DNA of 64,000 nucleotides from an uncultured Clostridia bacterium (GCA_963931155.1 OZ006978.1:1498289-1562288), one strand, 5' to 3'; positions 2,436 to 57,188 are shown, counted from the stretch's first letter. Notes: generated by a model not told the origin, from the sequence alone. Translations and numbers: made by a program.

Positions 2436-3020
2436 ATGATTGATAAAATTTTAAAAATAATGGAAAAAAACAATGAAATAATAACACCTGCACAACTAGA
2501 AAAAAATGGAATATCTAGGATATATTTATCAAAGATGGAAAAAGAAGGAATTATCGAAAGAATTGAAAGGGGAATATATGTAACAAAAAAATTTAAATAT
2601 GATGAATATTATTTATTTCAATTAAGATACCCAAAAACAATATTTTCTCATAACACAGCATTATATTTTTATGGAATGACAGAAAGAACACCAATAAAAA
2701 TGGATGTCACAGTTTATAGAGAGTATAATCCACATAGATTTAAAAATTTCGCAAATGTTTATAAGATTAATAGAGAACTATATGATATGGGGGTTGTAAA
2801 AAAAGAGTCACCACAAGGAATGTTAGTAAAAACATATAATCTAGAAAGAACTGTATGTGATATTATAAAAGATAAAAATAGTTTAGAGATTGAAATAAGA
2901 AATAAAGCAATAAAAAAATGTATTAAAAGTAAAGAATTTGATGCTAGTAAAATGTTTGATTATGCTAAAAAAATGAATGTATATGATAAAGTTAAAAGTC
3001 ATATGGAGGCAATTATATGA
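2436..3020 (+). CDS. AbiEi-family antitoxin / transcriptional regulator (type IV TA)
   Basis: 194 aa. The N-terminus (ITPAQLEKNGISRIYLSKMEKEGIIERIERGIYV) is the typical AbiEi wHTH signature. Its stop overlaps the downstream start by 4 nt (ATGA). Confidence 0.8.
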   Translation: MIDKILKIMEKNNEIITPAQLEKNGISRIYLSKMEKEGIIERIERGIYVTKKFKYDEYYLFQLRYPKTIFSHNTALYFYGMTERTPIKMDVTVYREYNPHRFKNFANVYKINRELYDMGVVKKESPQGMLVKTYNLERTVCDIIKDKNSLEIEIRNKAIKKCIKSKEFDASKMFDYAKKMNVYDKVKSHMEAII

Positions 3021-3850
3021 TAAAAAATGCTAAAAGCTTAATAGATAAATCAAAAAATTTAGCAACAAAGTATAATATTACAGTAAATGAAGTATTACAG
3101 AATTATATGTTTGAAAGAATACTAGAAAGATTATCTGTTTCAAAATATAAAAACAATTTTATATTAAAAGGAGGATTATTGCTATCTTCAATAATGGGAA
3201 TAGATACTAGAACTACTATGGATATGGATACTTGTATAAAAGGAATTAACTTAACTGAAGAACAACTATATAAAGTATTAACTGAAATTTTAAACATAGA
3301 TATACATGATAATGTAAATTTCATAATAGAGAATACTAAACCTATAAGAGAAGATGATGAATATGGAGGATTAAAATATAATATTGTAGCAAAATTTGAT
3401 AATCTTAGGGTAAATTTAAGTATAGATGTAGCAACAGGAGATTTAATAACTCCAAGTGAAATAGAATATGAATATAAAATGATATTTGAAAATAGATGCT
3501 TAAAAATAATGACTTATAATATAGAAAGTATCATAGCTGAAAAATTCCAAACATTAATATCAAGAGGAATATTAAATAGCAGGATGAAGGATTATTATGA
3601 CTTATATTATTTAATAAAATATAAAAGCTATTCAGAAGATATACTTCAAAATGCAATAGAAAAAACATTTAACAGAAGAAATACAGACATGCAAAGTATA
3701 AATAAAGTCCTTAAAGAAATAGAAAAAAGCGATTTTATAAAAGATTTATGGAAAAGATATTCACAAAAGTATCAATACACAAAAAATATAGAATTTAAGG
3801 AAATAATAAGTTATATAAATAAGTTAGGTAAAATAATTTACAAAAATTAA
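3017..3850 (+). CDS. AbiEii/AbiGii-family nucleotidyltransferase toxin (DUF1814)
   Basis: 277 aa, translationally coupled to the AbiEi gene. FILKGGLLL...MDMD... is an NTase-like motif layout typical of AbiEii. Confidence 0.75.
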   Translation: MIKNAKSLIDKSKNLATKYNITVNEVLQNYMFERILERLSVSKYKNNFILKGGLLLSSIMGIDTRTTMDMDTCIKGINLTEEQLYKVLTEILNIDIHDNVNFIIENTKPIREDDEYGGLKYNIVAKFDNLRVNLSIDVATGDLITPSEIEYEYKMIFENRCLKIMTYNIESIIAEKFQTLISRGILNSRMKDYYDLYYLIKYKSYSEDILQNAIEKTFNRRNTDMQSINKVLKEIEKSDFIKDLWKRYSQKYQYTKNIEFKEIISYINKLGKIIYKN

Positions 3851-3879
3851 AAAATAATGATACAATATAAAAAAAGTTA

Positions 3880-3888
3880 TGGTATAAT
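3880..3888 (+). promoter_or_regulatory. Extended -10 promoter (TGgTATAAT) of giant paralog B
   Basis: TGGTATAAT. The 16-nt context agttatgGtataataa is 15/16 identical to agttatgAtataataa at 15416..15431, upstream of paralog C. Confidence 0.6.
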
Positions 3889-3953
3889 AATTTTTGATAA
3901 AAAGAAGAAAGGAAAACAAGAAAAATGAGCAAGCTTGAAAGCCTTGGCGCTGT

Positions 3954-3975
3954 ACACACACACACACACACACAC
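3954..3975. repeat. (AC)11 dinucleotide microsatellite in the 5' leader of paralog B
   Basis: Read directly: gtACACACACACACACACACACACaat. Confidence 0.98.
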
Positions 3976-4095
3976 AATACGTTCTTACCAAAAGGAATGT
4001 TGGAAACAAAGTACGAGAATAGATAGAAGATTCTTCGGAAGAAGAATCCTATTAAACATGCCTCAAAGTTTTAATAGAATAGATAAAGTAACAAC

Positions 4096-4163
4096 AGGGA
4101 TAGACTGTATTACTGTAAATGTTAGTAAAAGGAACATTTATGGTGATATGGCCTATCCTTTTT
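4096..4163 (+). terminator. Candidate leader terminator/attenuator upstream of paralog B
   Basis: Outer stem AGGGATAG (4096-4103) / CTATCCT (4153-4159). Inner hairpin TAAATGTT (4116-4123) / AACATTTA (4133-4140). A T5 run follows at 4159-4163, 65 nt before the GTG start. Confidence 0.35.
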
Positions 4164-4227
4164 GCGTGTGAAAAGTAAGTATTTAAAGAAAAATAAGAAA
4201 TCAAAAGCAGAAAGGAATTGAGGTATA

Positions 4228-7200
4228 GTGAGAAAAGATAGAATAAATAAAACACAAGTGAATAATAAAAAGATACGTAAAGAAAAGAGAGGTTTGAACA
4301 ATAAAGGCAAAAGAGTAAATGTAAAGAATTTACCTACATTTATATTGATAGGACTAATTTTAATGATAATCATAATAGCAATAATCTATTATGTGTTTTT
4401 GAGATATGCACCAGAACAGATAATAACGTATAGTGGATATGCAATAGAGGGACAAGCATTAGCAGAAAACTTAAAAAATAGTGACATATCTAATGTTAAG
4501 CCATACTTGGATTTGGTAGAAGTACAAGAAAATGATTTACTATATAAACGCTTAAATTCATATTATGTAGGAGAAGATGATAAAAAAGAGATAGACATTA
4601 ATTATCCAATATACATAAATGAAGGAAATGCTCTTTTAAACATAGGAAAGAATACAAAATTAATAACAGTAAATTATGAAGAAGTAGCTGGATATCCAGA
4701 GTTCATGATGACAGATGGAGTAATGTATAATGGAGCAGATTTAACGAGAGCAGATGGGAATAAATATATATTCTTAAAGAGTGAAGATGAAATATATACA
4801 AATGTAGGAGCAATAAAGATAACAACTGCAACAAACACATACAACATAAAAGAATTTAGTAATATATATTTTACAGAAAATTCAATTACATATTATGAAA
4901 TGGAAGAAGATTCAAATGTACAAAATTGGTATATGAAATATAAAAGAATAGATGATATAGATAATAATTCGAAGATAGAAGTAAAAGGAGAAACTATTTC
5001 ATACAAAACATTTCTAGAAAGATTAGGTTTAATAGACTCAGAAGAAAACGTAAACAATACTGATAAAGAAAAAACAACAAACGAGATAAGTGAAAACACA
5101 GTAGAAAAACCAGAGCAAGTAAATGAAGAAAGCTCAGCAAATGAAAACAATAATATCACTACTGAAGCAACAACAGATAGCAAAGAAGAGAACAAAGAAC
5201 CAGAATGGCAAGAAGGAATGTGGGAGAAACCAGAAGTAAGTTGTACTGATTTTGAGGGAGAAGTATATACAATAAGAACAAACTTATCAGTAAGAGATAG
5301 AGCAGGAGTTATAACAAGAGGAATAACATTTGAAATATATTTAGATGGAAGACTAAATAGAAGAGTGCAAGTGGCACAGGCAGGAACACTAGAAATAACA
5401 AACTTAAGACCAAGTTCAGAATATGAGATAAGAGGAATATTCTACTACAATGATGAAAATGGAATAGAACAAGAGGAAGAATTCTACACAGGAAAAGTAA
5501 GTACAAAATCAATAGATACATTAGGAACACTAGACTTTAGCTTCCAAAACGGAGAAATATATTCAAATAAAATAGAAATAATACACTTAAAACTAAATAA
5601 CAATATAGATGAAGAAGTAGTAAGAGGAATATCAAGGCTACAAGTAGAAATAGGAGATGTAGCATATAGATTAACAAATGCACAAATAGATGAATTAAAA
5701 GCAGGAAAAGAAATAACATATCAAACAAGTGAAAACTTAACATCAAATAGTAAGATAAAATATGAGATAACAGCATTTGATAGATTTGGAAATGAACTAA
5801 AAGAGAAGAACAATGAAGGAGAGACAATAACCTCAAAGCAAATGCCAACAGCAAGTATAAGACCAACAAAACAAGATGTAACAGAAATAGAGATAGAAGT
5901 AGTATTAAACAATAAAGATAATGTAAAACTGGAAAATTATAGATATGAAATAACAAATCCAAGTGGAGATATAGTAAAACAAGGAATACTAGGAACTGGA
6001 AATAGTAATGGCTCAAACAACGGACAAGTTGGTGAAGATGGAAGTCTGATAGCAGGAGGCAACATAAATGACGGACACAAAGAAACACTAAAATTCAACG
6101 ACCTAGACCCAAATGGATATTATCAAATAGTAATCTATGGAGATTACGACTTAGAAGATGGAACAGGAATAAAAGAAAATGCAGAATTAGGAAGAGGAAG
6201 TTTTGTAACAAGACCAATAGCATCACTAGGATATATGCAAGTAAAAATAGATGATAAAGAAATAACACAAAACTCAATGGACTTAGGAATAAGTATAGAT
6301 GAAAATCAAACAGATGCAAGACTTTTAGCAATACTAGATAAAGTGGAAGTAGTTATATATGACGAAGGTAAAAATACAGATAACGATGGGCAACAAGGAC
6401 AAGAAGAACAAAGCAAAGAAACAGAAGTCCAACGCATAACCTTTATGCAAGAGCAAGTCCAACAAATAAAAACATCAGAAGAAGTGGAACTAAGTATAGA
6501 GCAACTAAACTCAAACACAAAATACAGAATAGATGTAATAACAACAGTAAGACAAGGAACAGTAGAAGAAGTAGTAGAAGATAAACAAAATATAGAACAA
6601 TTAATAACACTAAAAATGCCAGCAGAAGTACAAATAAAGAACCAATTTGTAATAGGTACAATGATAGACCTAGACATGAGAATAGAAGATATAGATAGTT
6701 CGGTATTAACAAACAAAGTAAGAATAGAGGTAAGAGATAAAGACAATAAATTAATAGACCTAAGTGAAATGTCAACAAATGCAGAATATGAAAGAAAAGT
6801 ATATGAAGACCTAACACCAAATGAAGAATATAGAATAATAGTATATGCACCACAATACAACATAGGAAGTACAGATAAAACATACAAAGCAGATTACATA
6901 TTAAAAGAAATAAAAATAGTAACAGAAACAGGAATAAGTGGAAGATTAGATTTAATAGGGCTAGAAAAAACACCAACGGGAAAAAACCTAATAGATGTAT
7001 CTTCTAAAGTAAATTGGTTTGAAAGATGTTTTAATATTAGTAATAAATATGGCTTAAGTTACAATGAAGAGAATAAGATACTTAAATTAGGTGGGTCTAT
7101 GTGGACTAATAATATAAATTATTATGATTTAAGCAAATATCTAGGACAACAAGTAACAATAAGTTTCAAAGCTAGAGAACAAAACAATACAAATTTAGAT

Positions 7201-13961: not shown

Positions 13962-14029
13962 AAACTAATACTGAAGTATAAAAATATTCCCAAACGTAAT
14001 GATTTATGAAAGAAGGGAGAAAAACGAAG

Positions 14030-15364
14030 ATGGAAAGATTAAAAAGGAAAATTGATAATTATCTTATTGAGTGGAAAAAGAACAATGATAGCTTGCCATT
14101 AATTATAAAAGGAGCAAGACAAATAGGAAAAACCAATGCAATAAGAAACTTTGGGCAAAATAATTATCAAACTTTTGTTGAAATAAATTTTGCTTTACAA
14201 CCACAATTTAAAACAATTTTTGAAGAAGGATTTGAAGTCGACAATATAATAAAAAATATAACTCTAAAAATGCCTGAAATAGAAATAAACGAGCATGATA
14301 CATTAATCTTTTTTGATGAAATGCAAGAATGTGTAAGTATCGCAACTTCACTAAAAGCATTTAATGAAGATGGAAGATATGATGTTATTTGCTCAGGTTC
14401 TTTAATGGGAATTAACTACAAAGAAATTGAATCAAATAGTGTTGGAAACAAAGAAGATTACATTATGAAATCATTAGATTTTGAGGAATTTTTATGGGCT
14501 AAAGGATATTCAGATGAGCAAATAGAAGATTTGTATCAACATATGAAAAAACTAAAACCGCTAAGCAATATGCAGTATGATGTGATGATGGCTAATTTTA
14601 AAGAATATATGATAGTAGGAGGTATGCCTGCTATAGTAAGCAGATTTGTGGAGAACAGAAACTTTAGTGGAATTTTAAAAATGCAACAGCAAATTTTATT
14701 GGATTATGAAGAAGATATAACTAAGTATGCTGGAGGATTAGACAAAACTAAGATACTGAACTGTTATAGAAAAATACCAGTCTTTTTAGGAAATGAAAAT
14801 AAAAAATTTCAAATATCAAAAATTGCTGATGGTGCAAGAAATAGAGAATATGTAGGTGTTGTTGAATGGCTAGAAAATGCCGGAATTGTAAATATCTCAT
14901 ACGCTATGGAACAAGCTAGCCTTCCACTAAAAGGAAATTATAATCCGGATAATTATAGATTATATTTTGCAGATACTGGATTGTTAATTGGTTCACTAGA
15001 TGAAGAAGTTCAAGAAGATTTAAGAAATAACGAAAATATGAATACTTACAAAGGAGCATTATATGAAAATATTGTAAGTGATATGTTAGTGAAAGAAGGC
15101 TATAGCTTATATTTTTACAAAGATGATAGTAAAAAAATCGAAATGGACTTTATGGTAAGAGATAAAAATTCATTAATTCCAATCGAAGTTAAAGCAAATG
15201 ATAATGCAACAATTTCACTTAATAATTTAATAAACAATAATTTATATAAAGATATTAAATATGGTATAAAGTTTTGCAACAAAAATATAGGATTTAATGG
15301 AAAGTTTTACACATTTCCGTATTTCTTAACATTTTTATTAAAAAGATTTTTAAAGGAAAAATAA
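14030..15364 (+). CDS. AAA-family ATPase (AAA_14 N-terminal domain plus DUF4143-type C-terminus)
   Basis: Walker A is GARQIGKT; Walker B-like is LIFFDEMQ. The overall length and layout match DUF4143 ATPases. ATG 14030 has the RBS AAGGGAG 10 nt upstream; the tracked start at 14006 has none. Confidence 0.75.
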   Translation: MERLKRKIDNYLIEWKKNNDSLPLIIKGARQIGKTNAIRNFGQNNYQTFVEINFALQPQFKTIFEEGFEVDNIIKNITLKMPEIEINEHDTLIFFDEMQECVSIATSLKAFNEDGRYDVICSGSLMGINYKEIESNSVGNKEDYIMKSLDFEEFLWAKGYSDEQIEDLYQHMKKLKPLSNMQYDVMMANFKEYMIVGGMPAIVSRFVENRNFSGILKMQQQILLDYEEDITKYAGGLDKTKILNCYRKIPVFLGNENKKFQISKIADGARNREYVGVVEWLENAGIVNISYAMEQASLPLKGNYNPDNYRLYFADTGLLIGSLDEEVQEDLRNNENMNTYKGALYENIVSDMLVKEGYSLYFYKDDSKKIEMDFMVRDKNSLIPIEVKANDNATISLNNLINNNLYKDIKYGIKFCNKNIGFNGKFYTFPYFLTFLLKRFLKEK

Positions 15365-15420
15365 TTTTGTGATGAGAAATTAAAAAAAATACAAAATAGT
15401 ATTCAAAATTAAAATAGTTA

Positions 15421-15429
15421 TGATATAAT
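15421..15429 (+). promoter_or_regulatory. Extended -10 promoter (TGaTATAAT) of giant paralog C
   Basis: TGATATAAT with TTCAAA 16 nt upstream. Homologous to the promoter at 3880. Confidence 0.6.
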
Positions 15430-15441
15430 AAAAATGTCATC

Positions 15442-15470
15442 GTGCCACCCGGGACAGACCACATTGGCAC
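15442..15470. repeat. REP-like hairpin, copy 1 (GTGCCA-cccgggacagaccacat-TGGCAC)
   Basis: 6-bp stem. The loop motif GGGACAGACC is shared with copies at 29106, 31479 and 32910. Confidence 0.7.
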
Positions 15471-15529
15471 AGCAAACAAGAGAAAAGGAGACTAGAAAAT
15501 ATGAGAAAAGCTAAAAACCGCATGGCTCT

Positions 15530-15545
15530 AGAGAGAGAGAGAGAG
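15530..15545. repeat. (AG)8 dinucleotide tract inside the 5' coding region of paralog C
   Basis: Read directly: ctAGAGAGAGAGAGAGAGcta. It separates ATG 15501 (frame 0) from the body of the ORF (frame 2). Confidence 0.98.
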
Positions 15546-15595
15546 CTACACTATTAAATAACCTACCAGTATTTATACTAGTAGGAATAGTTGTA

Positions 15596-18500
15596 ATGCT
15601 AATAATACTAGTAGTAATATATTATATATTTTTAAGATATTCACCAGAACAAATAATAACATATAGTGGATATGCAATAGAAGGAAAAGAGATGGTGGAG
15701 AACTTAAAGAGTAGTGATAAGTCCAAGTTAGCACCATACTTGGGCTTAATTGCTGTGCAAGAGAATGATTTGATATATAAAAAATTAAATTCATATTACA
15801 TAGGAGAAGATGATAAAAAAGAGATAGATATAAATTATCCAATATACATAAATGAAGGAAATGCCTTACTTAATTTAGGAGAGAACACAAAACTAATAAC
15901 AGTAAATTATGAAGAAGTAGAAGGATATCCAGACTTCATGATGGCAGATGGAGTAATGTATAATGGAGTTGACATAACAAGAGCAGATGAAAACAAGTAT
16001 CTGTTCCTAAAAAGTGAAGATGAAATATACACAAATGTAGAACCAATAACCATAACAACAGCAAATGGAGAGTATACAATAAAAGAGTTTAGTAACATAT
16101 ATTTTGCAGAAGACCATATAGCATATTATGAAATGGAAGGTATGCAAGGAAAAAACGAGCGAAATGAAAATAATGAAAAAAATAACGGTACAGAAGATAG
16201 AACAAATAGTGAAGTAAATAATAATGCAGAAAGTAAACAAAAAGAAAATCAAGGGAATAATAAGAACGATAATTTAAAAGACAGCTATTTACAATACAAA
16301 GAAATAAAGCCAATAGACCCAGATTCAAAGACAAAGATAAATGGAGAAACAATAACATATAAAACATTGTTGGAGAGATTAGACATTTTACAAACAGAAG
16401 ATAACAACGCAAACAATAACAACGAAGAAAATGCAACAAACGAAACAAAAGAAGATGATGTAAAAAATACGACAAACGAAGAGAATACAACCACAGGAGA
16501 AACAACAGAGCAAAACAATAATATAAGCAATAATCAAAATACAACAAATACGGAAAATAACAATAGCAACAAGGATGAAGACGAATGGCAGGAAGGAATG
16601 TGGGAAAAACCAGAAGTAAGCTGTACAGATTTTGAAAGCGATGTGTATACAATAAGCACAAATCTATCAGTAAGAGATAGAGCAAATGTCATTTCAAGAG
16701 GAATTACATTTGAACTATACTTAGATGGAAGATTAAATAGAAGAGTATTTGCAACAAAAGTAGGAAAAGTAGAGATATCAAACTTACAACCAAGTTCAGA
16801 ATATGAGATAAAAGGAATATTCTACTATACAGATGAAAACGGAGTAGAACAACAAGAAGAATTTTACAATGGAAAAGTAACAACAGAATCAATAGACACA
16901 TTAGGAACAATAGATTTTAGTTTTCAAAATGGAGAAATATATTCAAATAAAATAGAATTAAAGAACTTAAAAATAAACAACAATATAGACGAAGAAGTAA
17001 TAAAAGGAATATCAAGGTTGCAAATAGAGATAGGAGATATAGCATATAGATTAAGCAATAACCAAGTAAATGATATAAAAGCAGGAAAAGAAATAACATA
17101 CCAAACAAGTGAAAGTCTAACATCAAATAGTAAAATAAAATACAAAATCACAGCATTTGATAGATTTGGAAATGAGCTAAAAGAGAAGAACAATGAAGGA
17201 GAGACAATAACATCAAAACAAATGCCAACAGCAAGTATAAGACCAACAAAACAAGATGTAACAGAAATAGAGATAGAAGTAGTACTAAATAATAAAGATA
17301 ATGTAAAACTAGAAAACTATAGATATGAAATAACAAACCCAAGTGGAGATATAGTAAAGAGTGGAGCATTAGGCAAAAACGATAATGGCACAGATGGTGG
17401 AAACTCCAATGAAGGGGAAAACATAAATGACGGACACAAAGAAACATTAAAATTCAACGACCTAGACCCAAATGGATATTATCAAATAGTAATCTATGGA
17501 GACTACGACTTAGAAGATGGAACAGGAATAAAAGAAAATGCAGAACTAGGAAGAGGAAGTTTTGTAACAAGACCACTAGCATCATTAGGATATATGCAAG
17601 TAAAAATAGATGATAAAGAAATAACACAAAATAGTATGAATCTTGGAATAAGCATAGATGAAAACCAAACAGATGCAAGACTTTTAGCAATACTAGATAA
17701 GGTAGAAGTAGTAATATATGATGAAGGTAAAAATTTAGATAACGGTGGGCAACAAGGAGAAGAAGAACAAAGTAAAGAAACCGAAGTACAATGCCACACC
17801 TTCACACAAGAACAAGTTTCACAACTAAAAACATCAGAAGAGGTAGAGTTAGATTTACAACAACTAAACTCAAACACAAAATACAGAATAGATGTAATAA
17901 CAACAGTAAGACAAGGAACGGTAGAAGAAGTAGTAGAAGACAAGCAAAACATAGAACAATTAATAACACTAAAAATGCCAGCAGAAGTACAAATAAAGAA
18001 CCAATTTGTAATAGGTACAATGATAGACCTGGATATGAGAATAGAAGATATAGATAATGCAGTATTAACAAACAAAGTAAGAATAGAAGTAAGAGATAAA
18101 GACAATAAATTAATAGACCTAAGTGAAATGCAAACAAATGCAGAATATGAAAGAAAAACATATGAAGACCTAACACCAAACGAAGAATATAGAATAATAG
18201 TATATGCACCACAATACAACATAGGAAGTACAGATGAAACATACGAAGCAGATTACATCTTAAAAGAAATAAAAATAGTAACAGAAACAGGAATAAGTGG
18301 AAGATTAGACTTAATAGGACTAGAAAAAACACCAACAGGAAAGAACCTAATAGATGTAAGCTCAAAAGTAAATTGGTATGAAAAGTGTTTTAATACAAAT
18401 AATAAATATGGTTTAATCTATAATGCAGAAACAAAAATAGTTACATTAGGTGGAACTACATGGCCGAATCATTTAACTTATTATGATTTAAGCAAATACT

Positions 18501-21500
18501 TAGGACAAGAAGTAACAATAAGTTTTAAAGCAAAATCTGAAAATGGAAAAATTTTAAATATAATAGAAAAAAAGAATGATGATTTTAATAACACAGATTT
18601 AACAACATATTATTGGATAAAGGACTTAAATAAAGAATGGCAAGAATATAGTTATACAACTATACTCAAAACAACAGGATATATTGGATTTTATGTAGAT
18701 GCTAATACATTAGTAGAAATACAAGACTTACAAATAGAACTAAGCGATAAAAAAACAGACTATGAAGAATTCAAGTATGACTACAATGCAATTGTAGCAG
18801 TAACGTTAAATGATGAAAGAGATGAAATAGCAACAAATGATTATTATATACGAATATACAAGAACGACGAACAAATTCAAGAAATAAGATATGAAGAAAT
18901 AGGAGAAGACAACAAAGTAGAAAATGCAGAAAAAACATACAACATAGAACCAAATGCAAATTATAAAATAGAGCTTTTAGTAAAAATTGGAGAACGATTC
19001 TATGAGTTAGATTCACAAGAGTTTTCAACAGAAGGTTCAAGCGAATTGAAAGGAATTCAGAACAAAAATGATTTCTTAAAAATACAACCATATGGACAAT
19101 ATATTGTATTAGACAACATAGATTTAACAAATAATAGTGGTATTATGTATCGATTTGGAAATACTAATTTAGAATTTGAGGGAAAGATAGATTTCAATGG
19201 AAAGACTCTATTTAAAGACTGGAGTGGGGACAATACTGTACCAGTTATTTATCAACTTGGAGATAATGGAACATTGGAAAATGCAGTACTTGATGTAAAA
19301 ATGAATAATAAAAATTCTTCCGCTTTTGCTACTACATCTGGATTAGTTAGTAGAAATTATGGAAATATACGAAACATGCAAATTAATTTAACAGAATCAA
19401 ATTATAATTCAAATAATGATGCGTGGATTTTTAGTTATGAAAACCATGGAATAATAGAAAACTTTGTAGTAAATTTTCAAGTGCCATTTTATTTATCCGG
19501 TCTTGGGGGGATTTTCGGTTATCAAAATTATGGTATAATAAAAAATGGATATATTTATGGCGAAAATATACAAAACATAAATAATACTAATTCTCCTTCA
19601 AAGGCAGCGGAAATTGTTGCTAACAATGCGGGAAATGGAGAAATAGAAAATATTTATACATTAATAAGCATAGATAACGTATATGAAAAATCAGGGTATG
19701 CGAAAAATATCGTATACAGCAATGTTAATAATGCAACAGTACATAATGTGTATTCCGTAAAAATAGGAAAGAATACTAGTTTGACAAACGGACCCAATAT
19801 TTATAATGGTTCTAAAAAAGTTTATAATAGTTACTATTTTACAGATGAGACTTTTACAAATTCTTCTGAAACAAAAGGTAATAAATTATCATTATGGGAT
19901 GCAGAATTCCAAAATCAACTAATAAATAGTGATAAAGTGTTTGTAGTAGATGAACTAGTAAATGAAGGATATTATCCTCAAATAAAAATGCCGGATTGTA
20001 TGCCAGTACAAGAATATATAGAATTGCCAGAAGTGGCTGATAGCGACCTTCCAGATATATTATCAACAAAGGTACTAGAACAAGGAACAAATACAGTAAA
20101 AGTAGAATTTAGTGTGAACAACCCATCAGCAGAAACAATAGATAATATACAAATAGAAAATATAAATGTAGATATTCTTTCACAAGAATATAGTAATGGA
20201 AAAAGTACAGTAATAGCAGAATTAAATAATCCTACTATTTGTGTATCAAGTTATGATGTATTAAGTATAAGTACAAAAGGTGCATTTGGAAGCTCATATA
20301 CAAGACCATATGAAAAAGGAGAAAGAGTAATAAATGTAGATTTATATAAAGAGGTATGGAATATAAATGACTGGAAAAGTATAAACGATTCTCCAACTGA
20401 AAACTATATGCTTATGGAAGACTTAGACTTTGTAAATGAAGGGAACACTATAAGACTAGAAGCTGTACATGGTATAATAAATGGCAATGACCATACAATA
20501 TCGAATATAACATTGAAGGATATATCACTTATATTAAATTGTTATGGAACATTAGAAAATTTATATATTTATAATTTCAAACAAGAGACATTATCAAGTA
20601 GAGGACTTATTACATATGCGAACCCTAATGCACTAATAGATAATGTTCATGTTACAAATAGTTCAATAATTGTAACAGGTTCTGGACGATTTGGAGGATT
20701 AATAAGTAGTACATCAGGCTGTATTATAAAAAATAGTTCTATTACAGATTTGAATATAAATGTAACTGCAGAACAAGATGAAATGTATATTGGAGGACTT
20801 GTTGGCTATATTTATACCACAAGCATAGAAAATTGCTATGTTCAAGGGCTAAACATAAAAGACTTAAAAGGAGTAAATGCAGGAATTGGAGGGCTTGTTG
20901 GAACGGGAACTGATGCAAATAGTATAATAAATTGTTATGCAGAAGGAAAAATAGATTCGAATAATTTAAATGTAGGAGGATTAATAGGTTCTACTACTAG
21001 TATTAATATTGAAAACTGTTACTCTAAAGTAAATATATCAACTACAAATAGTAATATAGGAGGTATAATAGGAAGTTACTCACTAACTGATTTAAGAACT
21101 ATTACAAACAATATAAGCATAGGAAACATATATACTACATCAGGATTGGATGCTTTGAATAGAATTGTTGGAAATAATGGAGAATTAACAACTAACAATT
21201 ATGCATACGAAAAACAATTATTAAATGGGTATGTAAGAGCGGATGAAAAAGGTGCTACCTTATTAAATAAAGAAGAAATATTAAACTTAAACTTAGGAAC
21301 AAAATATAATTATGAAGGAAAAACAGAAGGAATATTGCCTAAATTATATAACACAGAAGGTACTAAAATATTACCTAATCAAAAAGATATACTAATAGAA
21401 GATAATTCTTTATCAGGTGCAACGGGCTTGGAGATAGAAAGCATAGAAGCTACAAAGCCAAACACAACTGAAGCAGAAATATCAATTAGAATAAAAAATC

Positions 21501-22375
21501 CAGATGGAATAGATATTACAGGATTAGAAATAGAAGATATGGAAGTCACAGAAATAACAAGAAATGTAACACAAAAAGGGATGACAAATATTACAGTAAG
21601 CGCAGTTCCAACAAGATATTATGATACATATAAGCTTATTGGAATTAAATATAAAACTGGGGGTATACAAGAAGAACAAACAAAAGATGTAGAGGCAGAA
21701 GTAAAAGTGCAATTCTATAAGGAAATATATACATATGAAGATTGGCAGTCGATAGAAGACGGAACTTATCAAAATTACAGATTAATGGCAGACATAGATT
21801 TTAATGGCAGAACTAATATAAAGAATAATATAACAGTTAATAGATTAGAAGCTGAAAATAATATTTATACATTAAAAAATATTAACATATCATTTAATAA
21901 AGCTAATACGGGTTTAATAAACAATGTAAAAACAAGTATTAAAAATATAGGATTTGAAAATATTACATTAACAAACACAACGGGTACAGGAAATTATTTT
22001 GGAGTGATAGCAAGTAATAATGGAGAAGTAGAAAGTTTAAAGTTTACCAATATAACAATAAATGCATCTGGTATAAATTATTTAGGTGCTATAGGAGTAA
22101 TGAATTCCGGAAATATTGATAATATAGAAATTAACCATATGACCATAAATGGAAAAGGACAAATAGGAGGACTTTTGGGAAATATTGTTGTATCCGGTGA
22201 TGAACATATAAAAAATGTACAAGGAAATAACATAAATATAACAGGTACAGATATTTATATAGGTGGAATAATTGGTAAACAGACCAGCACCAGACTTGTA
22301 ATAGAAAATATACGGAATAAAAGATTCAAATATAACTGGAAAATCAGATTATGTAGGTGGAATTATAGGAAGTAA
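15596..22375 (+). CDS. Giant surface protein paralog C, N-terminal 2259-aa segment. The tracked ATG lies inside the signal-anchor helix and the 3' end is truncated by a frameshift.
   Basis: Collinear with paralog B residues ~46-2290. The homologous MRK start codon is at 15501 in another frame. The reading frame is lost near 22310. Confidence 0.8.
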   Translation: MLIILVVIYYIFLRYSPEQIITYSGYAIEGKEMVENLKSSDKSKLAPYLGLIAVQENDLIYKKLNSYYIGEDDKKEIDINYPIYINEGNALLNLGENTKLITVNYEEVEGYPDFMMADGVMYNGVDITRADENKYLFLKSEDEIYTNVEPITITTANGEYTIKEFSNIYFAEDHIAYYEMEGMQGKNERNENNEKNNGTEDRTNSEVNNNAESKQKENQGNNKNDNLKDSYLQYKEIKPIDPDSKTKINGETITYKTLLERLDILQTEDNNANNNNEENATNETKEDDVKNTTNEENTTTGETTEQNNNISNNQNTTNTENNNSNKDEDEWQEGMWEKPEVSCTDFESDVYTISTNLSVRDRANVISRGITFELYLDGRLNRRVFATKVGKVEISNLQPSSEYEIKGIFYYTDENGVEQQEEFYNGKVTTESIDTLGTIDFSFQNGEIYSNKIELKNLKINNNIDEEVIKGISRLQIEIGDIAYRLSNNQVNDIKAGKEITYQTSESLTSNSKIKYKITAFDRFGNELKEKNNEGETITSKQMPTASIRPTKQDVTEIEIEVVLNNKDNVKLENYRYEITNPSGDIVKSGALGKNDNGTDGGNSNEGENINDGHKETLKFNDLDPNGYYQIVIYGDYDLEDGTGIKENAELGRGSFVTRPLASLGYMQVKIDDKEITQNSMNLGISIDENQTDARLLAILDKVEVVIYDEGKNLDNGGQQGEEEQSKETEVQCHTFTQEQVSQLKTSEEVELDLQQLNSNTKYRIDVITTVRQGTVEEVVEDKQNIEQLITLKMPAEVQIKNQFVIGTMIDLDMRIEDIDNAVLTNKVRIEVRDKDNKLIDLSEMQTNAEYERKTYEDLTPNEEYRIIVYAPQYNIGSTDETYEADYILKEIKIVTETGISGRLDLIGLEKTPTGKNLIDVSSKVNWYEKCFNTNNKYGLIYNAETKIVTLGGTTWPNHLTYYDLSKYLGQEVTISFKAKSENGKILNIIEKKNDDFNNTDLTTYYWIKDLNKEWQEYSYTTILKTTGYIGFYVDANTLVEIQDLQIELSDKKTDYEEFKYDYNAIVAVTLNDERDEIATNDYYIRIYKNDEQIQEIRYEEIGEDNKVENAEKTYNIEPNANYKIELLVKIGERFYELDSQEFSTEGSSELKGIQNKNDFLKIQPYGQYIVLDNIDLTNNSGIMYRFGNTNLEFEGKIDFNGKTLFKDWSGDNTVPVIYQLGDNGTLENAVLDVKMNNKNSSAFATTSGLVSRNYGNIRNMQINLTESNYNSNNDAWIFSYENHGIIENFVVNFQVPFYLSGLGGIFGYQNYGIIKNGYIYGENIQNINNTNSPSKAAEIVANNAGNGEIENIYTLISIDNVYEKSGYAKNIVYSNVNNATVHNVYSVKIGKNTSLTNGPNIYNGSKKVYNSYYFTDETFTNSSETKGNKLSLWDAEFQNQLINSDKVFVVDELVNEGYYPQIKMPDCMPVQEYIELPEVADSDLPDILSTKVLEQGTNTVKVEFSVNNPSAETIDNIQIENINVDILSQEYSNGKSTVIAELNNPTICVSSYDVLSISTKGAFGSSYTRPYEKGERVINVDLYKEVWNINDWKSINDSPTENYMLMEDLDFVNEGNTIRLEAVHGIINGNDHTISNITLKDISLILNCYGTLENLYIYNFKQETLSSRGLITYANPNALIDNVHVTNSSIIVTGSGRFGGLISSTSGCIIKNSSITDLNINVTAEQDEMYIGGLVGYIYTTSIENCYVQGLNIKDLKGVNAGIGGLVGTGTDANSIINCYAEGKIDSNNLNVGGLIGSTTSINIENCYSKVNISTTNSNIGGIIGSYSLTDLRTITNNISIGNIYTTSGLDALNRIVGNNGELTTNNYAYEKQLLNGYVRADEKGATLLNKEEILNLNLGTKYNYEGKTEGILPKLYNTEGTKILPNQKDILIEDNSLSGATGLEIESIEATKPNTTEAEISIRIKNPDGIDITGLEIEDMEVTEITRNVTQKGMTNITVSAVPTRYYDTYKLIGIKYKTGGIQEEQTKDVEAEVKVQFYKEIYTYEDWQSIEDGTYQNYRLMADIDFNGRTNIKNNITVNRLEAENNIYTLKNINISFNKANTGLINNVKTSIKNIGFENITLTNTTGTGNYFGVIASNNGEVESLKFTNITINASGINYLGAIGVMNSGNIDNIEINHMTINGKGQIGGLLGNIVVSGDEHIKNVQGNNINITGTDIYIGGIIGKQTSTRLVIENIRNKRFKYNWKIRLCRWNYRK

Positions 22376-22380
22376 TTCAT

Positions 22381-25086
22381 ATGGTATTTTACGGATCTTT
22401 TAATTCTGAAAACACTAATGTAACAGGAGTTGCAAATGTAGGAGCAATTTTTGGAGCATGTTATGGTAATGAAAATGCATATATTAGGCATCAGATGCAA
22501 GTTGATTCTTGTACTGTTATAGGAACAGGAAATTATTTAGGCGGAATCTCTGGGTATCATCATGGTGGAAATAATTTAGGATGGAAAGTAATAGATACAA
22601 CAATTAGTGCAAATAATACATCATCTAAAAATGTTGGTGGCCTAGTAGGGTACTTAGGACAAACACCTATTGATCGTATACAAATAGATGGAATTACAAT
22701 AAAAGGAAATGCAACCAATGTGGGCGGAGCTGTAGGGACAAATGATTCTAGAACATGGATTACACTTGGGTATATTACGAATGCTATAATAGAAGGAAAT
22801 TCTAATGTGGGCGGAGTGTATGGTTATTCATCAGCCTCATATATTCATGATTTGTATATTGATGCGGAAATAAAAGCACATAGCAGTAGTGCTGGTGGAG
22901 TAATAGGGTATATGGATAATACCTATATGGAAGAATCAAGAAACATTATACAAATATATAGAGTTGCAGTAGTTAATAGCAATATAGTTGCTGAGTCAAA
23001 AGCTGGTGGTTTAATTGGAGACATTGCTACTAATATATTTAGAAACAAATCATTCTATTATGACAATTATGTTGAAACAAATGTAACAAGTACAAATTCG
23101 TCAACAGGTTCGCTAATAATTGGTGGTAGACCAGATGAAAACGATTACATTGATAATACGTATGTGTATAAATACAGCAAATTAAATAGCAATTACGTTT
23201 ATGCAACAAATGACAATATAAATAATAATCAATACTTAGTAAGAACCGACTTAGACAATCAAAGTACCTATTCAAACAAAATAAATTTAGGAACAACATT
23301 TTGGAGTTATACAAGTTTATCAGAAGGAAAATATCCAAAGATAAATGATGACTATGTATACCATCCAGAATTACAAACAGGAGTAAATTTACCAGTTGAC
23401 CCAGAAATTGCTGATATAAGCTTATTAAGTGAAGGTAATGAGAGTGATACCACAAGTCAAAATGAAGAAACTGATATAAAAATACAAAACAGTACTGTAA
23501 TAGACGCATTACCAAGTTATAAAGTATATCCAATTTCAGTAAATGAAATAAATATAGACTTTAGTGAAGTAATGAATAATTATAAAGTAGAAGAAAATAA
23601 TGGGCAACAAGGAGAACAATTAAGAAGTGCAGATACAAAAACATACTTCACATACTACGTAAACGGAGAGGAAAAAGAAACTATAGAATTAAGTAATACC
23701 ACAAAACAAACATATACGTTCAAATATAATTTTAAAGACACATTAGAAATAAAACTTACAAGAGAAGATAATGTAGATTTAAATAATGTGATGGAAAATA
23801 CTCAAACAAATTTAACCTCAGACGAAAGTGCAAGTACAAAAACTAATATGGAAACAAACGCAGAAACAGGCACAAAAACAAACATATACACAGAAACAAT
23901 AGTAATCAAACCAGAAGATGTAAGAAGTGAAGCAAGTTTAGTTGGAAGAAACAATGCATATATATTAGGCACAAACATATATGTTAATGGAGAATTGCAA
24001 CAAGGAGAATATGTAAATGTATATGAAGGATTAGCTCTAAAAAGTGATGGTACAGTAATAAATATAGCAACAAATGAAATTGTAGAACAAAATGTGGAAA
24101 CAGTATTAGAAGAAAATACAAAACCTTTAGAAACATACAACTACAAAGACTACAGAATAAACACATATGGAACTTACAGCACAGTAAATGGAAATATAAA
24201 ACTTCAAATATACAATGTAAGAAGCGGTAAGTTTTCAGTTTTGTCAAATGGTTTAGATATAAAAATTGGAAATAGCATAATAGATAATTACAATAATAAA
24301 GAATACCAAACAATCCTGTCAACAGAAGGAAATTTAGTGGACTTAAAAGAAATGCTAAAATATCCAGAGAATTTCTTAACAAGGAATATAAAACAAATAG
24401 CACAAAATACAGATGAAGAAAAAACAGAAATGATAGTATTATACAATACTGGAAAAGTAATAGTATTTAACTATGTAACAGGAGAAGTAATTTATGAAAA
24501 CAACGAAAAAGCAGACTCAGGATTAGTAGATTACTTAGAAGGAAGTATTTCTAACATATGGAATAATTATGAAGAAAAACAGCAAGAATATGCAAAGAGT
24601 AAAGAGTTAGAACAAAAGCTTGCAAAATTACCAATAGAAGAAGCGTTAAAGGAAATTATGGATAGTAGCACCGATGATACAAATGGTGTAAGCAGAAATC
24701 CAAATAAGCTAGAAGAAAACAATAATACTGCCAACAAAGATATAGCGCAAGGAACAACAAGTGGAAACGAAGATAGAAACTCAGGCAATAATTCAAATAC
24801 AAGCACAGACAACAGTTACGTTTCAGTTTACAATGCAGAAACAAAAGAATATGAGGTATACAGCGAAAACGAAATACTAAACGAAAGTGGAGAAACACCA
24901 GTATCAGAAACAGAAAAGATAAAACAAAACGGATTAGAAGGAATATATGGATATAATGCAAAAGAAGAAACAAAGCCACAAACAAATGGAGCAATAATAG
25001 TAATAGCAACAATAGTTATAGCAGTAATTGCGTTGGTTATTTTAAGAAAAATTGTTGTAAAAAATAATACAAAAAAGAAAAAATAA
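22381..25086 (+). CDS. Giant surface protein paralog C, C-terminal 901-aa segment
   Basis: Continues the alignment to paralog B (GLUG-like repeats ... STGSLIIGGRPDEN ... KPQTNGAIIVIATIVIAVIALVILRKIVVKNNTKKKK). The last ~520 aa are nearly identical to B. Confidence 0.8.
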   Translation: MVFYGSFNSENTNVTGVANVGAIFGACYGNENAYIRHQMQVDSCTVIGTGNYLGGISGYHHGGNNLGWKVIDTTISANNTSSKNVGGLVGYLGQTPIDRIQIDGITIKGNATNVGGAVGTNDSRTWITLGYITNAIIEGNSNVGGVYGYSSASYIHDLYIDAEIKAHSSSAGGVIGYMDNTYMEESRNIIQIYRVAVVNSNIVAESKAGGLIGDIATNIFRNKSFYYDNYVETNVTSTNSSTGSLIIGGRPDENDYIDNTYVYKYSKLNSNYVYATNDNINNNQYLVRTDLDNQSTYSNKINLGTTFWSYTSLSEGKYPKINDDYVYHPELQTGVNLPVDPEIADISLLSEGNESDTTSQNEETDIKIQNSTVIDALPSYKVYPISVNEINIDFSEVMNNYKVEENNGQQGEQLRSADTKTYFTYYVNGEEKETIELSNTTKQTYTFKYNFKDTLEIKLTREDNVDLNNVMENTQTNLTSDESASTKTNMETNAETGTKTNIYTETIVIKPEDVRSEASLVGRNNAYILGTNIYVNGELQQGEYVNVYEGLALKSDGTVINIATNEIVEQNVETVLEENTKPLETYNYKDYRINTYGTYSTVNGNIKLQIYNVRSGKFSVLSNGLDIKIGNSIIDNYNNKEYQTILSTEGNLVDLKEMLKYPENFLTRNIKQIAQNTDEEKTEMIVLYNTGKVIVFNYVTGEVIYENNEKADSGLVDYLEGSISNIWNNYEEKQQEYAKSKELEQKLAKLPIEEALKEIMDSSTDDTNGVSRNPNKLEENNNTANKDIAQGTTSGNEDRNSGNNSNTSTDNSYVSVYNAETKEYEVYSENEILNESGETPVSETEKIKQNGLEGIYGYNAKEETKPQTNGAIIVIATIVIAVIALVILRKIVVKNNTKKKK

Positions 25087-39578: not shown

Positions 39579-40820
<1,242 letters not shown>

Positions 40821-55625: not shown

Positions 55626-57188
55626 GTGCTAAGTCAGGGCACATATGCAATATATTTAAGAAAATCAAGAGAAGATATTGAAGCGGAAAAATATGGTGAG
55701 GGTGAAACTTTAGCAAGACATGAAAAAATTCTAACTACTTTAGCTAAAAAAAGAAAACTACATATTTCAAAAATTTATAGAGAAGTTGTAAGTGGCGAAA
55801 CAATTAGTGAAAGAAAAGAAATGCAAAAACTACTTAGAGATGTTGAAAATGAAAAATGGACAGGTGTTTTAGTTGTTGAGGTAGAAAGACTTGCTCGTGG
55901 AGACACCGCCGACCAAGGTAGAGTTTCAAAAGCATTTAAATATTCTCATACAAAGATAATTACTCCTGTTAAAACATATGACCCAGATAATGAATTTGAT
56001 GAAGAATATTTCGAGTTTGGCTTGTTTATGTCTAGGAGAGAATACAAGACTATAAATAGACGTTTACAAAGAGGCCGTGAACTTTCCGTATCAGAAGGTA
56101 AATTTGTTGGAAATATTGCTCCTTTTGGTTATGATAGAATAAAACTAAAAAATTCAAAAGGCTATACCTTATCTATAAATCAAGATGAAGCACCTATTGT
56201 TAAAGAAATCTTTAGATTATATGCTTTTGAAAATACCTCTATAAATTCAGTTGCAAAACAATTAAATAAACTAAATTTAAAACCTAGAATTGCAAATGAG
56301 TGGTCTATTTCTTCTGTTAAAGATATTCTCTCTAACCCTACCTATATTGGTAAAATTGTATGGAATAGAAGAAAGCAAAAAAAGAAAACAAAAAATGGAC
56401 ATCTTATTATTAGTAGACCTCGCAATCAAGATTATTTAATTTATGACGGATTGCATGAGCCTATTATTGATAATAAGACTTGGGAATTCGTACAAGAAAA
56501 AAGAAAGCAAAATACTCCAAAAGTAAAACATAATAACGCTATTCAAAATCCATTAGTTGGTTTAGTATTTTGTGAAAAATGTGGTAAACCTATGCAAAGG
56601 CGACCATATACCAAAGATGACAAGCCTGCTACTCTTATGTGTTCTAATTCTAAATGTGATAATATAAGCTCTAAACTTTATATTGTAGAAGATAAAATCA
56701 TCGAGGCTTTAAAAATATGGCTTGAAAATTATAAAGTAGATTATTCAAGAAAAAATAATCTAAACTCTGATAATAACAAAATAATAGAAAAGTCTGTTAG
56801 CACGACTAAAAAAGAATTAGAAAAAGAAAATGCTAAACTTAATAAAATATATGAATTTTTAGAAAATGGAATATATAACAATGACGAATTTATAAAACGT
56901 TCTAAAGCAATAAAAGACAATATTCAATGTTTAGAAAGTAAGTTAAAAGAATACAATTCTATATTACAAAAAAATCTAGAAATACAAAATCAAAAAGAAA
57001 TTATAATACCAAAGCTAGAAAATATTATAGATTTATATTATAATTTAGAAACAGCTGAAGATAAAAATATTTTATTAAAAAGTATAATTAGCAAAGTTAC
57101 TTATTTAAAAACAGAAAAGGCTATAAAAAAGGATTCTGACCCAACCAACTTTGAGTTACATATTTTCCCTAAAATAGCTAAACTATAA
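55626..57188 (+). CDS. Large serine recombinase (resolvase catalytic domain, recombinase domain, zinc ribbon, coiled coil)
   Basis: YAIYLRKSREDIE (catalytic Ser context), VVEVERLARG, CEKCGKPM...CSNSKCDN Zn ribbon, 520 aa. RBS AAGGAGG. Confidence 0.9.
   Translation: MLSQGTYAIYLRKSREDIEAEKYGEGETLARHEKILTTLAKKRKLHISKIYREVVSGETISERKEMQKLLRDVENEKWTGVLVVEVERLARGDTADQGRVSKAFKYSHTKIITPVKTYDPDNEFDEEYFEFGLFMSRREYKTINRRLQRGRELSVSEGKFVGNIAPFGYDRIKLKNSKGYTLSINQDEAPIVKEIFRLYAFENTSINSVAKQLNKLNLKPRIANEWSISSVKDILSNPTYIGKIVWNRRKQKKKTKNGHLIISRPRNQDYLIYDGLHEPIIDNKTWEFVQEKRKQNTPKVKHNNAIQNPLVGLVFCEKCGKPMQRRPYTKDDKPATLMCSNSKCDNISSKLYIVEDKIIEALKIWLENYKVDYSRKNNLNSDNNKIIEKSVSTTKKELEKENAKLNKIYEFLENGIYNNDEFIKRSKAIKDNIQCLESKLKEYNSILQKNLEIQNQKEIIIPKLENIIDLYYNLETAEDKNILLKSIISKVTYLKTEKAIKKDSDPTNFELHIFPKIAKL

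Follow-up and report, generated by a model that had tools for sequence, protein, structure and literature searches.

What does a run of eleven AC dinucleotides do in the leader of a giant gene, inside a small open reading frame (ORF) that ends before the gene itself begins? The question is raised by gene B, a 9.5-kb gene encoding a large protein with transmembrane (TM) segments, which is located in a stretch of 64,000 nucleotides (nt) from an uncultured Clostridia bacterium (GCA_963931155.1, OZ006978.1:1498289-1562288), referred to here as the window. An earlier note on this sequence had proposed that the length of the simple sequence repeat (SSR) determines the frame of the leader ORF and, with it, whether ribosomes cross a terminator-like structure. 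This is the best-supported reading of the locus, by comparison of related loci and by analogy, not by experiment. The B leader is likely to be a phase-variable attenuator, in which the SSR sets the frame of a leader ORF ahead of a terminator, and the length of (AC)n probably decides whether ribosomes pass through the hairpin, thereby turning the giant surface-protein gene on or off. This leader belongs to a set of repeated cassettes, and the attenuator reading is favoured because 12 diverged cassettes, with two different repeat units, keep a single architecture; because the double stop is invariant, the long frame is open, the hairpin covaries and the tract length varies; and because the pil1 and pil3 leaders of Streptococcus gallolyticus offer an experimental precedent (PMC3894217).

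Anatomy and frame logic of the B leader

The elements of the leader and the start of gene B are listed below, with n as the number of repeat units.

3858..3866, + strand: second extended -10-like element TGATACAAT, a possible second promoter (sequence match only)
3880..3888, + strand: extended -10 promoter TGGTATAAT of the B leader (sequence match)
3908..3916, + strand: Shine-Dalgarno (SD) region of the leader ORF, AAAGGAAAA, roughly 11 nt 5' of the ATG; AAAGGA(G/A)A, at equal spacing in every cassette
3925..4026, + strand: leader ORF with (AC)11, 33 codons plus TAG; short frame, predicted OFF
3935..4171, + strand: long frame, entered from ATG 3925 at n = 9, 12 or 15; spans both hairpins and ends in TGA 4169-4171, 6 nt past the T-run
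3954..3975, + strand: pure (AC)11 tract, the hypermutable element
4020..4026, + strand: double stop TAGATAG, shutting both non-long frames just 5' of hairpin H1
4029..4048, + strand: hairpin H1, GATTCTTC-ggaa-GAAGAATC, 8 bp with a 4-nt loop
4049..4095, + strand: variable linker, long frame open, with a conserved in-frame ATG/GTG at 4058-4060
4096..4159, + strand: long terminator-like hairpin, 27 bp with a 9-nt loop
4159..4163, + strand: T5 run abutting the G-C base of the stem, 65 nt 5' of GTG 4228
4207..4223, + strand: SD region of gene B, GCAGAAAGGAATTGAGG; main starts are preceded by the conserved motif ATCAAAAGC.GAAAGGAA
4228..13740, + strand: gene B, with a GTG start, encoding a protein of 3170 amino acids (aa) with an N- and a C-terminal TM segment, the latter followed by a KKKK tail, and a GLUG motif

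The leader ATG at 3925, the (AC)11 tract, the 8-bp hairpin and the T5 run 65 nt before the GTG are all located where the earlier note had placed them. The stem at 4096-4159 also has the position and the T5 run described there, but it is not branched: it forms one continuous hairpin of 27 bp, interrupted only by a 1x1 internal mismatch and including five G-U pairs. The predicted folding of the B leader is stronger than that of shuffled sequences (z = -4.5). At its distal end, the foot of the long hairpin together with the U-run (4156-4165, UCCUUUUUGC) is fully complementary, with one G-U pair, to residues 4207-4216 (GCAGAAAGGA) in the SD region of gene B. In dinucleotide-preserving shuffles of the window, the expected number of tracts of (AC)8 or longer is 0.00, and the sole other dinucleotide tract of such length in the window is an (AG)8 (15530-15545), at the 5' end of the neighbouring paralog C.

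The promoter regions of B and C are alike, as had been noted before: the 16-mer AGTTATGGTATAATAA (3875-3890) and its counterpart AGTTATGATATAATAA before paralog C (15416-15431) are identical in 15 of 16 positions. Contigs and loci that were compared with the window carry L-numbers, and the cassettes among them come from chicken-gut assemblies; TGGTATAAT or TGTTATAAT is also present 5' of the cassettes in L021, L022 and L018. The upstream element TGATACAAT reads TGCTATAAT or differs in the variants L006-L008 and L022. Separated by 22 nt 5' of the leader, TGATACAAT and TGGTATAAT may form tandem promoters.

Translation from ATG 3925 was simulated for different tract lengths. With 8, 11 or 14 AC units, the ribosome stops at TAG 4024-4026, with 7, 10 or 13 units at TAG 4020-4022, and with 9, 12 or 15 units translation runs on to TGA 4169-4171. 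The simulation agrees with the earlier description of a 33-codon ORF that ends at 4024-4026 and is redirected into the 3935..4171 frame by one additional AC unit; the early stop expected with one unit fewer is also found, its codon, earlier given as 4020, being 4020-4022. All three frames end at or before 4171, 5' of GTG 4228. Because the repeat belongs to a separate leader ORF that ends 5' of this GTG, it cannot alter the reading frame of the B protein. An intragenic SSR switch was accordingly rejected for B, the repeat not being within the reading frame of the gene.

Known leader classes were considered as well. A covariance-model scan of the whole window against Rfam gave no matches at the gathering threshold, and in the interval 3800-4300 the single match is a chance microRNA at E = 10. 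A riboswitch, a T-box or another known leader RNA family is ruled out by this result; a known riboswitch class unrelated to the repeat had been named in the earlier note as a finding that would speak against its proposal.

The cassette family, its tract lengths and its conservation

Contigs encoding the neighbouring AbiEii/AbiEi proteins were fetched and yielded near-identical loci, in which paralog A carries an equivalent leader with (AG)n replacing (AC)n. A search with the long-frame peptide gave eight called small proteins of 71-88 aa, which start as M...(ER)n or M...(HT)n and finish as ...TGIDCITVNVSKRNIYGDMAYPFCV. An exhaustive profile search of 1.84 billion representatives returned only eight small-protein clusters, plus one weak match within a 4041-aa protein, and the cassette is therefore considered to be restricted to a narrow lineage. 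Two further searches yielded nothing related: a contig scan with a 20-mer of H1 gave seven chance matches, in unrelated high-GC genomes without similarity to the window, and in JGI metagenomes neither the terminator-arm DNA pattern nor the N-terminal 400 aa of B had a match.

Altogether, 12 distinct, diverged cassettes were recovered, each 5' of a gene for a TM-anchored protein of about 3000 aa or of another cassette. Their elements always follow in the same order: SD and ATG, about 30 nt, a pure (AC)10-15 or (AG)10-16 tract, a double stop, H1, a linker of about 47 nt, and the 27-bp hairpin with a run of five or six T residues; the start of the giant TM-anchored protein is located 37-103 nt past the cassette. 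The double stop takes the forms TAGATAG, TAGATAA, TAAATAA, TAAGTAA and TAGCTAG. Across the cassettes, the short-frame stops are 68-78 nt before the long hairpin, while the long-frame stops are either inside its 3' arm or 6 to about 45 nt after the hairpin and T-run.

In three loci, L021 (1025-1800), L022 (9607-10280) and L031 (1418-1964), two cassettes stand in series 5' of one giant gene. The divergent cassette of L032 (883-1130) has no promoter of its own and overlaps, with its leader ORF, the 3' end of the giant gene before it, an arrangement that suggests read-through control between consecutive giant genes. As some cassettes are arranged in series or overlap the preceding gene, without a promoter of their own, the cassette must act within a transcript.

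The first cassette of L022 is almost identical to the promoter and (AC)n leader ORF of B in the window, yet it precedes paralog A; L018 does not have it. From its presence before paralog A in the one locus and its absence from the other, it appears that cassettes are shuffled between loci.

The absence of variation in repeat length, together with that of a premature 3' end, had been named in the earlier note as grounds against its proposal, and variation in length is what was found. The B tract is AC11 in the window, in L001 and in L003-L005, AC10 in L002 and L019, AC13 in L009 and at least 9 units long in L008. When L019 is aligned with the window over 10,585 bp, there are no mismatches and a single 2-nt gap, equivalent to one AC unit. 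In paralog A, the tract of L018 is AG11, which gives the short frame, and that of L019 and L022 is AG16, which gives the long frame. Among the distinct loci and alleles that were not retrieved via a long-frame protein, two are in the long frame and about eight in the short frame. The B allele of the window, AC11, is in a short frame and so predicted to be OFF. The predicted leader peptides of the window allele for n = 8-16 had no match in the protein collection, a result that is uninformative for the short forms.

Conservation was analysed in an alignment of the 12 cassettes (A3); a cassette of 171 nt, L020_u2, was excluded from the alignments. In A3, 98.6% of the cells of H1 and the long hairpin are paired, five pairs show compensatory double changes and ten more have one-sided changes via G-U. 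None of 500 column shuffles matches these values, and slid controls are 43-56% paired. Taken separately, H1 has 99% of its cells paired and two compensatory pairs (GC/AU/GU/UA and UA/AU), with a free energy of -6.7 to -9.0 kcal/mol; in the long hairpin 98.4% of the cells are paired, with three compensatory pairs and 10 that change on one side via G-U (0/500 shuffles), and the free energy is -25.6 to -35.9 kcal/mol (11 cassettes). Since the G-U pairs are tolerated only in the RNA of the + strand, the conserved structure is that of an RNA. The T5-T6 run is invariant in 12 of 12 cassettes, and so are residues T13, A14, T17 and A18 of the double stop (alignments A1 and A3). Another, small hairpin (4046-4080) is 72% paired and not conserved, and it was dropped from the model.

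The long frame contains no stop codons across 133-139 nt, while the other two frames contain 5-7 and 3-7. An exception is the cassette L022_u1, in which a stop lies inside the 3' arm and the conserved tail is lost, with the hairpin kept. The cassettes are 167, 170 or 173 nt long, i.e. their indels are multiples of three; L020_u2, with its 171 nt, is the exception, and in its locus paralog A is split into many small ORFs. In the linker, variability at codon positions 1, 2 and 3 is equal (0.228, 0.264 and 0.252), and in the stems it is low at each of the three positions. AlphaFold gave no confident fold for the long-frame peptide (predicted local distance difference test, pLDDT, 46.6; predicted template modelling score, pTM, 0.18), the alignment being shallow. 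Because codon positions vary equally, the frame lacks stops and the peptide has no confident fold, it is open reading across the hairpin that is conserved, not the encoded peptide. A stop-creation test, with one stop among 74 distinct substitutions (P ~0.2), is too weak to count alone.

About 10 nt past H1, a long-frame ATG or GTG at 4058-4060 is present in 11 of 12 cassettes (T52 invariant, G53 in 11 of 12; L032 has ATA). It may be an internal start masked by H1, or a re-initiation site.

Proposed mechanism, objections and alternatives

Onto the observed anatomy, conservation, frame logic and tract-length polymorphism, the following mechanism may be placed. Transcription would start from the extended -10 promoter at 3880-3888, and ribosomes would initiate at ATG 3925 and then traverse the (AC)n tract. 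When n is 1 or 2 modulo 3 (here 11), the double stop at 4020-4026 would release them about 70 nt before the long hairpin; the 27-bp hairpin with its T5 run would form and most transcripts would end 5' of gene B, giving an OFF or low state. When n is 0 modulo 3 (9, 12 or 15), the ribosome would read H1, the linker and both hairpin arms as far as TGA 4169-4171, preventing the hairpin from forming, and RNA polymerase would enter the 9.5-kb gene, the ON state. Slipped-strand gain or loss of one AC unit would toggle between ON and OFF at random. Alternative antiterminator pairing was not found in the B leader, which would leave the role of antiterminator to the ribosome. A possible function of H1 is to hold up RNA polymerase until the first ribosome has caught up, or else to block re-initiation, for example at 4058-4060, and a ribosome halting at 4169-4171 may release the SD region 4207-4216 from its pairing with 4156-4165. 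That the hairpin terminates transcription, that translation relieves the termination and that the switch works in this direction are all suggested by analogy with leaders studied elsewhere.

Several points weigh against this attenuator. Firmicutes RNA polymerase can outrun ribosomes, and tight coupling would need a pause. As an intrinsic terminator, the hairpin would be unusual in its length and its high AU/GU content, and a simple terminator scan passed over it owing to its 9-nt loop. Public RNA runs gave sparse Logan contigs of gene B, none of them informative over 3880-4230. Most long-frame copies were obtained via called long-frame proteins, which biases their share upward, and among public assemblies the B allele of the window never occurs in the long frame. 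It is conceivable that a slip in assembly produced the AC10/AC11 difference. Logan contigs break at the tract, and read depth there is inflated by (AC)n repeats of the host. Finally, the reading frame of paralog A is fragmented in L019 and L022, although both of the A cassettes there are long-frame. Several giant genes are fragmented in the assemblies, and some members of the family may be pseudogenes or recombination donors.

Four other explanations were weighed against the attenuator. The complementarity between terminator foot and gene B could make the device mainly a translational switch, in which 4156-4165 pairs with the SD of gene B (4207-4216) and only a long-frame ribosome reaching TGA 4169-4171 opens the pairing or re-initiates. 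The 10-nt match UCCUUUUUGC/GCAGAAAGGA is present in the minimum-free-energy fold, the motif ATCAAAAGC.GAAAGGAA is conserved and the main start codon, GTG, is weak. A U-run will however almost inevitably match an SD rich in A and G, and in other cassettes the complementarity amounts to only 7-9 of 10 positions, while a second SD (GAGG, 4219-4222) remains unpaired. The distance from long-frame stop to main start varies from 37 to 103 nt, and the first of two tandem cassettes precedes another leader ORF, more than 150 nt away, which is unfit for coupling; we consider a mainly translational switch unlikely. The long frame could also encode a real phase-variable small protein of 71-88 aa, with the hairpin as its own terminator and the giant gene independent of it. 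Gene callers annotate long-frame ORFs in many assemblies, the tail TGIDCITVNVSKRNIYGDMAYPFCV is strongly conserved and the frame is open, with indels in threes, but neither linker nor stems show a third-position excess, which means that conservation follows the RNA stems, and L022_u1, stopping in the 3' arm, loses the tail and retains the hairpin. The AlphaFold model is poor, though its alignment is shallow, no Pfam domain is recorded, no promoter-like element was found between the terminator and GTG 4228, and the cassettes are found only 5' of giant genes. A functional small protein is thus given little credence.

The repeat might instead act without being translated, by changing leader folding, messenger RNA stability (e.g. 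through RNase III acting on the 27-bp duplex) or the loading of Rho. The z-score indicates a strongly structured leader, and at 27 bp the duplex has sufficient length for RNase III. Such action leaves unexplained why SD and ATG are conserved, why the double stop occupies exactly the two non-long frames and why the long frame is open; the AC and AG tracts are interchangeable among cassettes, the tract pairs with nothing conserved in the predicted folds and the A-rich, C-poor leader reads as a poor Rho site. Of the four, this explanation is held to be the least probable, and the fallback offered in the earlier note, a simple effect on leader folding, is disfavoured by the same conserved SD, ATG and double stop. 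A last possibility is that leader ORF and repeat are the relic of an N-terminus like that of paralog C, displaced by an inserted module with its own start, and that the repeat controls nothing now. Paralog C does retain a homologous SD and ATG with an (AG)n tract joined straight to the TM region, and many family members are fragmented. On the other hand, every copy has a long, pure tract, tandem duplication of cassettes has occurred, and double stop, open long frame and hairpins have all persisted in copies that differ at 16% of columns; a relic is considered as improbable as the small protein. None of the four readily accommodates a conserved SD and ATG together with the double stop, covarying hairpins and a frame that is open but unconstrained, and all were scored low.

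Within the attenuator reading, the cassette might furthermore be a portable, stackable random gate, a suggestion that is put forward tentatively. Cassettes in series (L021, L022, L031) would need two independent repeats in the long frame, and serial gating, if real, would give graded or much rarer ON states across the giant surface-protein family. A pause at H1 would supply the coupling that is otherwise absent from Firmicutes.

When the leader is compared with known systems, the classical intragenic SSR contingency loci include Neisseria opa and Haemophilus lic1, in which one frame in three is productive. These share with the window a short repeat, subject to slipped-strand change, close to where a surface-protein gene starts, and paralog C fits their pattern, whereas the B repeat is 250 nt away from its gene, in an ORF of its own that terminates 5' of the SD and GTG. 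In Clostridioides difficile cwpV, a leader terminator is switched by recombinase inversion between inverted repeats. As in B, a long 5' leader precedes a large surface-protein gene, in a clostridial relative, and a leader terminator decides between ON and OFF, as is proposed for B; in the B leader, however, the variable element is an SSR read by ribosomes, not an invertible segment. An invertible leader of the cwpV type was also sought: the only strong inverted repeats are the hairpin arms, and no inverted form occurs in the 12 cassettes or at contig joints. Ribosome-mediated attenuation is known from E. coli trp, his and pyrBI and from the antibiotic-sensing Bacillus leaders bmrCD and vmlR. 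There the position of the leading ribosome decides whether a terminator forms, as is proposed for B, and H1 could correspond to the 1:2 pause hairpin of trp; in the B leader the input would be a heritable change in DNA length, not amino-acid supply or drug stalling.

The closest counterpart is found in S. gallolyticus, where the pil1 and pil3 leaders contain a (GCAGA)n repeat in a leader ORF and a premature terminator (Danne 2014, PMC3894217). Their terminators have free energies of -18.7 and -28.2 kcal/mol, short peptides that end at least 28-39 nt 5' of the hairpin lead to low expression and long peptides that end in or after it to high expression, as established with start-codon, triple-stop and terminator-deletion mutants (PMC3894217). 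The likeness extends over the promoter, the leader ORF with SD, ATG and an SSR whose unit is not divisible by three, the stem-loop and the surface-structure gene that follows. Short-peptide stops lie well 5' of the hairpin in both (39 nt in pil, 68-78 nt in the cassettes), the hairpin energies are comparable (-18.7 and -28.2 versus -25.6 to -35.9 kcal/mol), and repeat number differs between isolates in pil and between assemblies in the cassettes. There are also differences. The cassettes have an AC or AG dinucleotide in 10-16 units, while pil has a pentanucleotide in 13-22 copies; in the cassettes one frame in three is long and a double stop shuts the others, while in pil1 both out-of-frame changes lengthen the peptide. 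The cassettes add the conserved H1 after the double stop and stand in tandem and at many paralogous loci, and their targets are TM-anchored proteins of about 3000 aa, not sortase-assembled pili. Switching has been demonstrated experimentally for pil, while the cassettes are known from sequence alone. Because repeat unit, organism and downstream genes all differ, the resemblance is treated as an analogy, and kinship between the two sets of leaders is not apparent.

In the literature searched, SSR-controlled leader-peptide attenuation has been demonstrated in one species only, for S. gallolyticus pil1 and pil3. The cassette points to an independent second origin of such control, in an uncultured spore-forming gut bacterium. 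New with respect to the pil switch would be the dinucleotide repeats, a one-in-three ON frame enforced by a double stop, the extra hairpin, tandem stacking and the spread over many genes; the device is modular here, reused and stacked before a family of surface proteins of about 3000 aa. In other genomes it could be sought by its signature, an SD with ATG and a pure dinucleotide tract, followed by a double stop, a first hairpin and a long one ending in a U-run, with the third frame open. The ON or OFF state of each giant gene would be predictable from sequence and could be read off metagenomes, and in annotation the 71-88-aa "hypothetical proteins" should be viewed with caution, as they are probably regulatory reading frames. 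If the organism is a host-attached commensal, for instance a segmented filamentous bacterium, which is a guess, the giant genes are candidates for variable adhesins or immune-exposed antigens. Papers on the segmented filamentous bacterium of chickens contained nothing relevant to its identity with this organism or to phase variation.

Paralog C and the neighbourhood

The second dinucleotide tract of the window is located at the start of paralog C.

15501..15557, + strand: start of paralog C, with homologous SD and ATG (15501), an (AG)8 tract at 15530-15545 joined to the TM-coding region, and no hairpin module

Here the tract lies inside the N-terminal coding region of the gene itself; it is followed by a TAAATAA double stop, and the main ORF (15596-22375) lies in another frame. 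With AG7 or AG10, C would be read in frame, as a protein of about 2290 aa. From its sequence, paralog C is a classical in-frame SSR switch, predicted to be OFF with (AG)8, and attenuator and in-frame forms would thus coexist in the window. The B and C forms appear to differ by one indel, bounded by AAATAAC and AAAGAAC, and a single deletion between these motifs may convert a transcriptional gate into an in-frame switch. If this is true, two kinds of SSR phase variation are interconvertible in evolution.

Further downstream, C is frameshifted with respect to B near 22375/22381, around a T-run in TATGGTATTTTACGG, and its last 901 aa are in another frame (22381-25086); paralog C is possibly a pseudogene, or a further correction would be required. 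The short leader of C contains a G+C-rich hairpin (GUGCCA...UGGCAC, 15442-15470) amid AT-rich sequence, with a predicted fold that is not above that of shuffled sequences (z = -0.8).

The window is AT-rich (28.5% GC), and its genes include those for SpoIVA, IleS, QueA, Tgt and pyruvate kinase, the source being a spore-forming bacterium. Its sequence was also found in chicken-gut metagenomes, while a megablast search of the plasmid collection gave no match to it. The C-terminus of the gene B protein lacks an LPXTG motif. The 3' end of paralog A occupies positions 86-2272 of the window. Between the giant genes, toxin-antitoxin or defence-like modules are present, which in the window are AbiEi/AbiEii (2436-3850 and 14006-15364); in other loci the spacer modules are a nucleotidyltransferase/HEPN pair, a DUF4258 pair and AAA_14/DUF4143 ATPases (L022, 8459-9203; L024, 2911-3467). 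In the gap between queA and tgt (39588-39682), there is a G+C-rich 36-nt tandem repeat of 2.6 copies, with consensus GAGCCTGTCCCCAAAGGTGACAAAAATGGCAGAAAA and without an Rfam match. Positions 55626-57188 encode a large serine recombinase (CcrB/XisF-like), which may mark an integrated or sporulation-excised element.

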